From NCBI RefSeq assembly GCF_003018235.1, contig NZ_CP027437.1: a stretch of DNA of 64,000 bases. The stretch is one strand, 5' to 3'. Positions 52,289-58,341 of this stretch are shown here, one piece after another. The stretch is from Escherichia coli (lineage in GTDB: Bacteria > Pseudomonadota > Gammaproteobacteria > Enterobacterales > Enterobacteriaceae). The position numbers and the translations under genes are program-made. Under the pieces are notes generated by a model. It searched no databases and was not told the DNA's origin. It was given only the letters and a program-made list of their open reading frames with translations. Position 1 is the first letter of the stretch. Each line of letters starts with the position of its first letter.

Positions 52289-52378
52289 AGCCAGCCAATC
52301 TTTTGTATGTCTGTGCGTTTCCATTTGAGTATCCTGAAAACGGGCTTTTCAGCATGGAACGTACATATTAAATAGTAG

Positions 52379-52744
<366 letters not shown>

Positions 52745-55728: not shown

Positions 55729-56154
55729 ATGTATCGCATTGGTGAGCTGGCAAAAATGGCGGAAGTAACACCCGACACGATTCGTTATTACGAAAAGCAG
55801 CAGATGATGGAGCATGAAGTACGCACCGAAGGTGGGTTTCGCCTGTATACCGAAAGCGATCTCCAGCGATTGAAATTTATCCGCCATGCCAGACAACTTG
55901 GTTTCAGTCTGGAGTCGATCCGCGAGTTGCTGTCGATCCGTATCGATCCTGAACACCATACCTGTCAGGAGTCAAAAGGCATTGTGCAGGAAAGATTGCA
56001 GGAAGTCGAAGCACGGATAGCCGAGTTGCAGAGTATGCAGCGTTCCCTCCAACGCCTTAACGATGCCTGTTGTGGGACCGCCCATAGCAGTGTTTATTGC
56101 TCGATTCTTGAAGCTCTTGAACAAGGGGCGAGTGGCGTTAAGAGTGGCTGTTGA
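55729..56154 (+). CDS. zntR: MerR-family Zn(II)-responsive transcriptional regulator
   Basis: 141-aa ORF with N-terminal MerR HTH and C-terminal Cys cluster (CCGTAHSSVYC). Confidence 0.93.
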   Translation: MYRIGELAKMAEVTPDTIRYYEKQQMMEHEVRTEGGFRLYTESDLQRLKFIRHARQLGFSLESIRELLSIRIDPEHHTCQESKGIVQERLQEVEARIAELQSMQRSLQRLNDACCGTAHSSVYCSILEALEQGASGVKSGC

Positions 56155-56209
56155 TTTTTTACACTGGCAGGATTACACTCGCGCCGTTAAATAACCAATT
56201 GGAGTTTTT

Positions 56210-56428
56210 ATGAGCCGATATCAGCATACTAAAGGGCAGATAAAGGATAATGCGATAGAAGCATTACTACATGATCCCTTATTCCGACAGCGCGTAGAGA
56301 GAAATAAGAAAGGGAAAGGCAGTTACATGCGAAAAGGAAAACATGGCAATCGGGGGAACTGGGAGGCCAGTGGCAAGAAAGTAAATCACTTTTTTACCAC
56401 TGGCCTTCTGCTTTCAGGCGCTTGTTAA
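56210..56428 (+). CDS. arfA: Alternative ribosome-rescue factor A
   Basis: 72-aa [33 protein letters not shown]...; its 3-prime end overlaps the convergent mscL stop. Confidence 0.85.
56364..56405 (+). promoter_or_regulatory. arfA intragenic mRNA hairpin (presumed RNase III processing site)
   Basis: Inverted repeat ggccagtgg ... ccacttggcc inside the arfA 3-prime coding region; the RNase III role is from memory. Confidence 0.45.
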
Positions 56429-56835
56429 GAGCGGTTATTCTGCTCTTTCAGCAAATCACGAATTTCTGTCAGTAATACTTCTTCTTTAGTTGGTGCAGGC
56501 GCGGCTGCTGGTTCTTCTTTTTTCCGATTCAGTTTGTTGATTAGCTTAATCGCCATAAAGATGGCAAAGGCTACAATCAGAAAATCAAAGACGTTTTGAA
56601 TGAAGACACCGTAATGCATCACAACAGCAGGGATATCCCCCTGCGCATCGCGTAGCGTGACAGCAAACTGTTTGAAATCGATCCCGCCAATTAATAAGCC
56701 CAGAGGTGGCATAATGATATCGGCAACCAGTGAAGATACAATCTTCCCGAATGCCGCACCGATAATGACACCCACCGCCAAATCCACCACGTTCCCGCGC
56801 ATCGCAAATTCGCGAAATTCTTTAATAATGCTCAT
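56425..56835 (-). CDS. mscL: Large-conductance mechanosensitive channel
   Basis: 136-aa ORF. Confidence 0.97.
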
Positions 56836-56964
56836 GTTATTCTCCCTATGAAGCCGACAATCATAAGTCTAACAAATGTTAAGCTATTTTCCTGCCAGGA
56901 ATGGATTTAATTAATCCTTGATAATCAAAGGGAAATAATAAGGCGTCATTAGACGCCTTATTAA

Positions 56965-58341
56965 TTACAAGAAGAAAGGACTTGGCTGGAAGAGTCTTTC
57001 GACGTCGGTAATAAACTTTTTATCTGTGAGGAACATAATTACGTGATCGCCTTGCTCAATGCGCAGATTGTCATTGGCAATCATCACGTCGTTTCCACGT
57101 ACCACCGCTCCAATAATCGTTCCTGGCGGTAGCTTGATTTCATCAATGACTCTGCCGACAACGCGCGAGGTGCTTTCATCACCGTGAGCAACGGCTTCAA
57201 TAGCTTCTGCTACGCCGCGGCGCAATGAGGAAACACCAACAATATCTGCTTTTCGCACATGGCTAAGCAACGCGGAAATCGTTGCTTGTTGCGGTGAAAT
57301 CGCAATATCGATCACGCTCCCCTGAACCAGATCCACATAAGCGCGACGCTGGATCAATACCATCACCTTTTTCGCACCCATACGTTTGGCGAGCATGGCT
57401 GACATGATATTGGCCTCGTCATCGTTGGTGACGGCAATAAACAGATCAACTTGATCGATATGTTCTTCGGCCAGCAGTTCTTGATCCGACGCATCACCAA
57501 AAAAGACGATCGTATTCTGCAACTTTTCCGCCAGTTCGGCAGCGCGTTGCTGATTACGTTCGATGAGTTTAACGCTGTAATCTTTTTCCAGACGACGCGC
57601 CAGCCCTGCACCGATATTACCGCCACCAACCAGCATGATCCGCTTATACGGTTTTTCCAGTCGCTGTAATTCACTCATCACCGCGCGGATATGCTGTGAA
57701 GCGGCAATAAAGAACACTTCATCACCAGCTTCAACAATGGTCGAACCTTGTGGACGAATGGGGCGATCGTGGCGGAAAATTGCTGCCACACGAGTATCGA
57801 TATGTGGCATATGTTCGCGCATGGTCGAAAGTGCATTACCAATCAGCGGGCCGCCATAATAGGCTTTAACCACAGCGAGGCTGACTTTACCCTCAGCGAA
57901 GTTCACCACCTGCAATGCGCCTGGATACTCAATCAGTCGGTAAATATTATCGATAACCAACTGCTCTGGTGCGATCAGATGATCAATCGGTACAGCATCT
58001 GAATGAAATAGCTTATCGGCATCGCGCACGTAGTCTGGTGAGCGGATGCGAGCGATGCGATTAGGGGTGTTGAAAAGTGAGTAGGCTACCTGGCAGGCAA
58101 CCATATTGGTTTCATCTGAACTGGTTACAGCAACCAGCATATCGGCGTCGTCGGCACCTGCCTCCCGCAATACACGTGGATGAGAGCCATGCCCCTGCAC
58201 GACTCGCAGGTCAAATTTATCCTGTAAGGTCCGCAGACGCTCACCGTTGGTATCGACAACAGTAATATCGTTGTTCTCGCCAACCAGGTTTTCCGCCAGT
58301 GTGCCGCCAACCTGGCCGGCACCCAGAATGATAATTTTCAT
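56965..58341 (-). CDS. trkA: Trk potassium uptake system NAD-binding protein TrkA
   Basis: 458-aa ORF with two Rossmann GxGxxG motifs. Confidence 0.95.

Follow-up and report, generated by a model that had tools for sequence, protein, structure and literature searches.

The gene examined here is, with near certainty, the ordinary and previously characterised arfA of Escherichia coli, equipped with its known autoregulatory hairpin in the 3' part of the coding sequence (CDS). It lies in a stretch of 64,000 nucleotides of E. coli DNA (which we refer to as the window, and in which all positions are counted). The hairpin occupies nucleotides 146-206 of the 219 in arfA, upstream of the stop codon and in the 3' third of the gene, where an original prediction made from the sequence alone had placed it. 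By giving up its own stop codon at this element, arfA would restrict the synthesis of a backup ribosome-rescue factor to times at which the primary system fails. The corresponding stem-loop of E. coli K-12 arfA was reportedly described in 2011, by Chadani and by Garza-Sanchez. We find a real and functionally important RNA element to be recoverable from raw sequence.

Around arfA the chromosome segment has the order rplQ-yhdN-zntR-arfA-mscL-trkA, and the list of open reading frames (ORFs) confirms the predicted 72-codon frame on the + strand (Table 1). The arfA product matches the Pfam family PF03889 (ArfA) over residues 4-45 with 88.1 bits, against a cut-off of 25.5, and is identical at 71 of 72 residues to the ArfA chain of the ribosome complexes PDB 5H5U, 5U9F and 5U9G. 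The sole change relative to 5H5U is K31R; among the 81 sequences compared, this position is occupied by K in 74, by Q in 5 and by R in 2. Residue 18, at which the substitution A18T abolishes ArfA activity (literature, including Morra et al. 2023, Life Sci Alliance; hereafter Morra 2023), is Ala in the window translation. A 331-nt query over the arfA region matched 5425 of 5426 complete E. coli genomes, with 100% identity in many, and the annotation of the 100%-identical chromosomes reads zntR, arfA, mscL. The exact hairpin of the window is carried by 2753 of these 5425 genomes, and the remainder are at least 95% identical to it (a single-base difference among the matches listed). One of the 5426 genomes is without a match to the arfA region; a plasmid-borne copy of the hairpin region is found in one E. 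coli record, and two copies in at least one genome.

Upstream of the gene, a weak sigma-70-like promoter candidate for arfA (TTGATT, 17 nt, TACACT; 56151-56179) overlaps the end of zntR; it has 8 of 12 consensus matches, under the threshold of the scan. A difference between the window and K-12, at 56161, falls in the spacer of this candidate.

Table 1. Features of the arfA-mscL locus, with positions and strands as in the window.
Feature	Position	Strand	Basis
zntR	55729-56154	+	ORF list
arfA CDS, 72 codons, stop TAA 56426-56428	56210-56428	+	ORF list, Pfam, PDB identity, annotation
Predicted segment for active truncated ArfA, codons 1-55	56210-56374	+	Literature and yrdG start
Complete arfA mRNA hairpin	56355-56415	+	Fold, published nt 146-206, 80/80 related species
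Hairpin basal stem, 4 pairs	56355-56358/56412-56415	+	RNA fold
Hairpin lower stem, 14 pairs, G+C-rich	56360-56373/56397-56410	+	RNA fold
Hairpin 1x1 internal loop	C56374/A56396	+	RNA fold
Hairpin upper stem, 8 pairs, A-U-rich	56375-56382/56388-56395	+	RNA fold
Hairpin terminal loop, 5 nt	56383-56387	+	RNA fold
Inverted repeat 5' arm, includes ggccagtgg (56365-56373)	56364-56382	+	Repeat search
Inverted repeat 3' arm, includes ccactggcc (56397-56405)	56388-56406	+	Repeat search
U-rich tract ttctgctttc after the G+C-rich core stem, candidate termination tail	56406-56415	+	Sequence; T fraction
Equivalent of K-12 ncRNA yrdG (b4846), 'arfA-derived small regulatory RNA', 54 nt	56375-56428	+	K-12 3438431-3438484 via alignment
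mscL 3' UTR (+1 to +64), antisense to the arfA hairpin; coordinates approximated from the publication	56361-56424	-	Morra 2023
TTAA palindrome with both stop codons	56425-56428	.	Sequence, ORF list; alike in K-12
mscL CDS, 136 codons	56425-56835	-	ORF list; Pfam MscL 160.8 bits; annotation in identical genomes
trkA	56965-58341	-	ORF list

The hairpin comprises about 26-27 pairs, of which the window sequence forms 4 + 14 + 8 in its three stems; a ninth upper-stem pair, present in most other species, is absent here. Folding of 56350-56420 gave a minimum free energy (MFE) of -34.0 kcal/mol, far from a free energy near zero, compared with a mean of -18.3 (standard deviation 2.7) for shuffled sequences (z = -5.77); none of 200 shuffles folded as well, and the same helix was recovered when longer sequence context was folded. 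The inverted repeat on which the prediction was founded is present, with ggccagtgg as quoted, but its 3' arm reads ccactggcc and not 'ccacttggcc', which has one t too many; it is also longer than quoted, with arms of 19 nt each that are 89% complementary and separated by 5 nt. The structure has the trait of an RNase III substrate, namely at least 20 bp of mostly continuous double-stranded RNA (14 + 8 pairs stacked over the 1x1 loop, plus the 4 basal pairs), and some mismatches in the stem are usual at RNase III sites (review from the discovering laboratory).

Rfam 15 holds no family for the arfA hairpin, giving only sub-threshold, miRNA-like matches at 56354-56417, and Alpha_RBS was the only family to reach its gathering threshold in the whole 64-kb window; the missing model is a gap in Rfam, not in knowledge. 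The Alpha_RBS match (RF00140, 102.7 bits, 52309-52420 on the + strand) is the S4-binding leader of the alpha ribosomal-protein operon and is expected there. Sub-threshold matches to gltS RNA and STnc130 in 56824-56984 are probably due to chance.

We evaluated the conservation of the hairpin in a comparative sample of 80 loci, one genome per species, all Enterobacteriaceae. The hairpin folds in 80 of 80 species, with a mean MFE for arfA nt 146-206 of -33.3 kcal/mol (range -42.0 to -25.3 kcal/mol). One member of the sample (L031), a 383-bp contig labelled Arthrobacter sp. 18067 (NZ_CACSJJ010000125.1), encodes an ArfA that is one residue off that of Raoultella terrigena (L030), and this contig is almost certainly an enterobacterial contamination of the Arthrobacter assembly.

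For RNase III cleavage, tagging, protein activity and an antisense effect at this locus we draw on the literature and on near-identity to the characterised locus. According to reviews from the discovering laboratories, RNase III cuts the arfA stem to yield a non-stop arfA mRNA, whose product is tagged by tmRNA and destroyed for as long as trans-translation has spare capacity. When the stem is broken by synonymous mutations, or when rnc is disrupted, arfA mRNA rises strongly; the RNase III cleavage site maps to the stem, and the C-termini of both tagged and untagged ArfA match it (review). Active ArfA lacks its last 17-18 residues (a later review and a biochemical paper), on which basis the 5' arm would be cut past codon 54-55 (about 56371-56374). 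The tail is dispensable for activity, the chain is disordered past about residue 46-48 in ribosome complexes, and the full-length protein is unstable through its hydrophobic tail (review).

The published coordinates agree with our fold: the arfA stem-loop of Morra 2023, nt 146-206, corresponds to 56355-56415 of the window, exactly the predicted helix. Morra 2023 also reported that a 54-nt arfA 3' product is cut further into 24 and 30 nt, and the K-12 RefSeq record (NC_000913.3, 3438431-3438484) annotates an ncRNA, yrdG, that covers the last 54 nt of arfA. Together with the 24- and 30-nt pieces, this annotation suggests RNase III cuts at about 56374/56375 and 56398/56399. A full-text literature search on yrdG returned no relevant paper; the annotation presumably originates from the 54-nt RNase III product of Morra 2023.

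Taken together, these data are consistent with the following model for the window. The arfA transcript would fold into a hairpin of about 26 bp at 56355-56415, and RNase III would cut the stem, in its 5' arm at about 56374/56375, after codon 55; by an alternative route, RNA polymerase would terminate just past the hairpin. An arfA mRNA deprived of its stop codon by either route would leave ribosomes stalled at its end, where tmRNA-SmpB would normally mark the nascent ArfA for degradation. Untagged, truncated ArfA (about 54-55 residues) would accumulate only once trans-translation is saturated or missing; it would then recruit RF2 and bring about rescue of the stalled ribosomes. Full-length ArfA of 72 residues would rarely be made and would be unstable through its hydrophobic tail, and the 3' fragment released by RNase III would lower the stability of mscL mRNA. 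The claim of the original prediction that arfA mRNA is cut at the hairpin to give a non-stop message thus appears sound, given that identity, position and fold all match the characterised E. coli stem-loop.

The relative weight of the two routes could be reversed, with the hairpin acting mainly as an intrinsic terminator inside arfA, polymerase stopping at 56406-56415 and RNase III cleavage being secondary; we consider this unlikely. The tract ttctgctttc directly follows the G+C-rich stem and has 5 T in its first 8 bases, and the sequence after the stem is rich in U on the arfA strand only (T fraction 0.51 on the + strand versus 0.20 on the - strand, over 81 sequences). In rnc mutants, moreover, truncated arfA mRNA persists, with 3' ends just downstream of the repeat that are ascribed to premature termination without RNase III (review), and the analogous brfA of Bacillus subtilis has a terminator before its stop codon (review). 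However, the U tract is interrupted and our consensus terminator scan did not flag the arfA hairpin, and the strong rise of arfA mRNA upon rnc loss or synonymous stem breaks, together with protein C-termini that match the RNase III site (review), argues for cleavage as the principal route. Non-stop arfA mRNA is also documented to arise by premature termination, a route that is complementary to RNase III cleavage and not exclusive of it.

Two further hairpins lie near the 3' ends of the neighbouring genes. The terminator scan flagged a 5-bp hairpin at 56419-56433 (cgctt-gttaa-gagcg) that has both stop codons in its loop and is followed on the + strand by gttattctgc; it could mark the end of the rare full-length arfA transcript. 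Its sequence is not conserved beyond Escherichia and Citrobacter, and other genera have ctgattaa. On the - strand, immediately after the trkA stop codon, a 12-pair hairpin followed by tttccctttg (56936-56963) probably serves as the terminator of trkA and precedes the mscL promoter region.

The hairpin also has to be considered from the side of mscL, which is convergent with arfA in 80 of 80 species. In the window the stop codons overlap as predicted, the arfA TAA occupying 56426-56428 and the mscL TAA 56425-56427 on the - strand. The prediction that the two genes share their 3' ends is correct as well, but it understated the sharing: with the published mscL 3' UTR the transcripts have about 64 nt in common instead of 4. 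Because mscL converges on arfA and its 3' UTR in E. coli spans +1 to +64 (Morra 2023), that 3' UTR is antisense to the entire arfA hairpin. According to Morra 2023, the mscL 3' UTR is targeted by the arfA 3' fragment as an antisense RNA, which shortens the half-life of mscL mRNA, arfA variants keeping nt 160-203 restore normal (lower) mscL mRNA levels, and RNase III also cuts the mscL 3' UTR in vitro; a 49-nt RNA from the mscL 3' UTR had been detected earlier (literature). In Fig. 1B of Morra 2023, E. coli is classed as 'proximal' (intergenic distance above 0) and not as 'overlap', whereas the CDSs of both K-12 and the window overlap by 4 nt with stop codons counted; the discrepancy probably reflects different counting of CDS ends.

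These observations raise the question of which strand is selected. It is very unlikely, in our estimate, that selection maintains the hairpin chiefly for the sake of the mscL message (to stabilise its 3' UTR, to terminate it or to provide an RNase III site) and that the effect of the hairpin on arfA is a by-product of convergence. The mirror hairpin on the minus strand does fold well (-30.6 kcal/mol, z = -4.48), the published mscL 3' UTR ends just beyond the hairpin and is cut by RNase III in vitro, the 49-nt RNA comes from the same 3' UTR, and in all 80 related species mscL is kept convergent within a few nucleotides of the hairpin. Against this, the + strand fold has the lower energy in 53 of 81 sequences, with a mean advantage of 2.9 kcal/mol (a moderate asymmetry that does not by itself decide the selected strand), and invariant G-U pairs on the arfA strand (for example, columns 14-58 of alignment A2, described below) become C-A mismatches on the mscL strand, after whose hairpin the U tract is absent. 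Genomes with arfA only, and others in which arfA is far from mscL, are reported by Morra 2023, and non-stop synthesis of ArfA extends to other proteobacteria, as far as reviews relay Schaub 2012. Hairpins in the 3' part of the CDS are also reported for arfA genes that lie apart from mscL, in Pseudomonas and Neisseria. Stability, the invariant G-U pairs and the strand-specific U tract suggest that selection acts chiefly on the arfA strand.

Selection on the RNA is visible in the substitution pattern of the hairpin. Alignment A2 is gap-free and contains 79 distinct sequences from the 80 species; standard pairs fill 90.9% of its paired cells, compared with 42-62% when the partners are slid by 1-3 columns (a shuffle control for this pairing is inflated by sequence relatedness). 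Double changes occur at six hairpin pairs. At upper-stem pair 33-39 we count C-G in 45 sequences, U-A in 29 and U-G in 5, the position being unpaired in none, and at pair 34-38 G-C in 45, A-U in 11 and C-G in 1. The lower stem is invariant and so carries no covariation information; support from covariation therefore comes from the upper stem only.

The arms are equally constrained at the level of synonymous sites. Third-position entropy in the arm codons 52-55 and 62-66 is 0-0.17 bits, compared with 0.5-1.8 bits for the invariant residues in the functional N-terminal domain; synonymous sites are frozen in the arms and free elsewhere, indicating selection on the RNA and not on the peptide. Part of the freeze arises because the arms are offset in frame, each wobble position pairing with the first codon position of the other arm. 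The idea that the inverted repeat is a chance by-product of coding constraint on the peptide motifs EASGK and FFTTGL can be practically dismissed: both arms do encode residues conserved in 81 of 81 sequences, but residues beyond 54-55 are absent from active ArfA and those beyond about 46-48 are disordered in the ribosome complexes (review), and we reject a coding-only origin on the basis of synonymous-site conservation at residues no more invariant than those with free third positions, the shuffled sequences and the compensatory changes in the upper stem.

The internal loop deserves separate mention. C56374 is the third position of the codon for Gly55, four-fold degenerate and unpaired in the model, yet all 79 distinct sequences share it. 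The proposed RNase III cut falls exactly there, and in two species (L075 and L076) the base opposite C56374 becomes G, which closes the internal loop. The extreme invariance of the lower stem and of C56374, with no compensatory change, exceeds what an ordinary RNase III hairpin would require. Perhaps the hairpin is under sequence-specific selection on both strands (as a processing module shared by the arfA mRNA and the mscL 3' UTR), or carries an undescribed recognition determinant, but we regard this with considerable doubt.

Downstream of the hairpin the constraint on arfA is relaxed. Codons 67-72 of ArfA have an amino-acid entropy of 1-3.2 bits, the C-terminal tail being hydrophobic and poorly conserved, and the length of the arfA ORF ranges from 68 to 93 codons across species. 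The overlap of arfA with mscL (stop codons counted) varies accordingly in the 81 sequences: 0 nt in 35, 4 nt in 21, 6 nt in 1, 26-27 nt in 8, 33 nt in 2, 47-48 nt in 7 and 65 nt in 7. The stop codon of arfA thus drifts while the hairpin upstream of it is frozen, as expected if ribosomes are not supposed to get as far as the stop codon. At the far end of this range are L020 and L027 (Salmonella enterica subsp. diarizonae and arizonae), L042, L050, L073, L074 and L077, with arfA ORFs of 89-93 codons, a 65-nt mscL overlap and an unchanged hairpin. Because the hairpin is unchanged despite these long ORFs, the annotated arfA lengths there are probably meaningless for the protein that is made.

The element, its mechanism and the antisense link to mscL are already known (published in 2011-2012 and 2023), and our analysis therefore adds no new biology. 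Its additions are modest (the frozen synonymous sites in the arms, the C-G/U-A covariation in the upper stem and the drift of the stop codon over 68-93 codons in 80 Enterobacteriaceae), and they fit the published model.

Comparison with K-12, which had been proposed as a check on the original prediction, revealed no divergence that would speak against it. Aligned with MG1655, the window has 6 differences in 331 nt, one of which alters the protein (K31R). The stem-loop of K-12 arfA (yhdL, b4550), nt 146-206, is the same in gene, position and predicted structure and is alike at 60 of 61 nt; the one difference, C instead of T at 56404, is synonymous (Gly65) and replaces a G-U with a G-C pair, making the window hairpin 2.7 kcal/mol more stable than the identically structured K-12 hairpin (-31.3 kcal/mol). 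The neighbours are also alike, with zntR upstream and mscL convergent, as is the TTAA overlap of 4 nt (mscL at 3438024-3438434 and arfA at 3438431-3438649 in K-12 coordinates).

Relative to the crosstalk between arfA antisense RNA and mscL described by Morra 2023, and to yrdG, we see no difference at the level of sequence: the convergence, the complementary region and the small RNA segment at 56375-56428 are all present. A more distant parallel is the brfA gene of B. subtilis, also a rescue-factor gene of 72 codons whose message is truncated before the stop codon and which is controlled by trans-translation (review). Unlike arfA, brfA encodes an unrelated protein, relies on a rho-independent terminator instead of RNase III, and is without an mscL partner.
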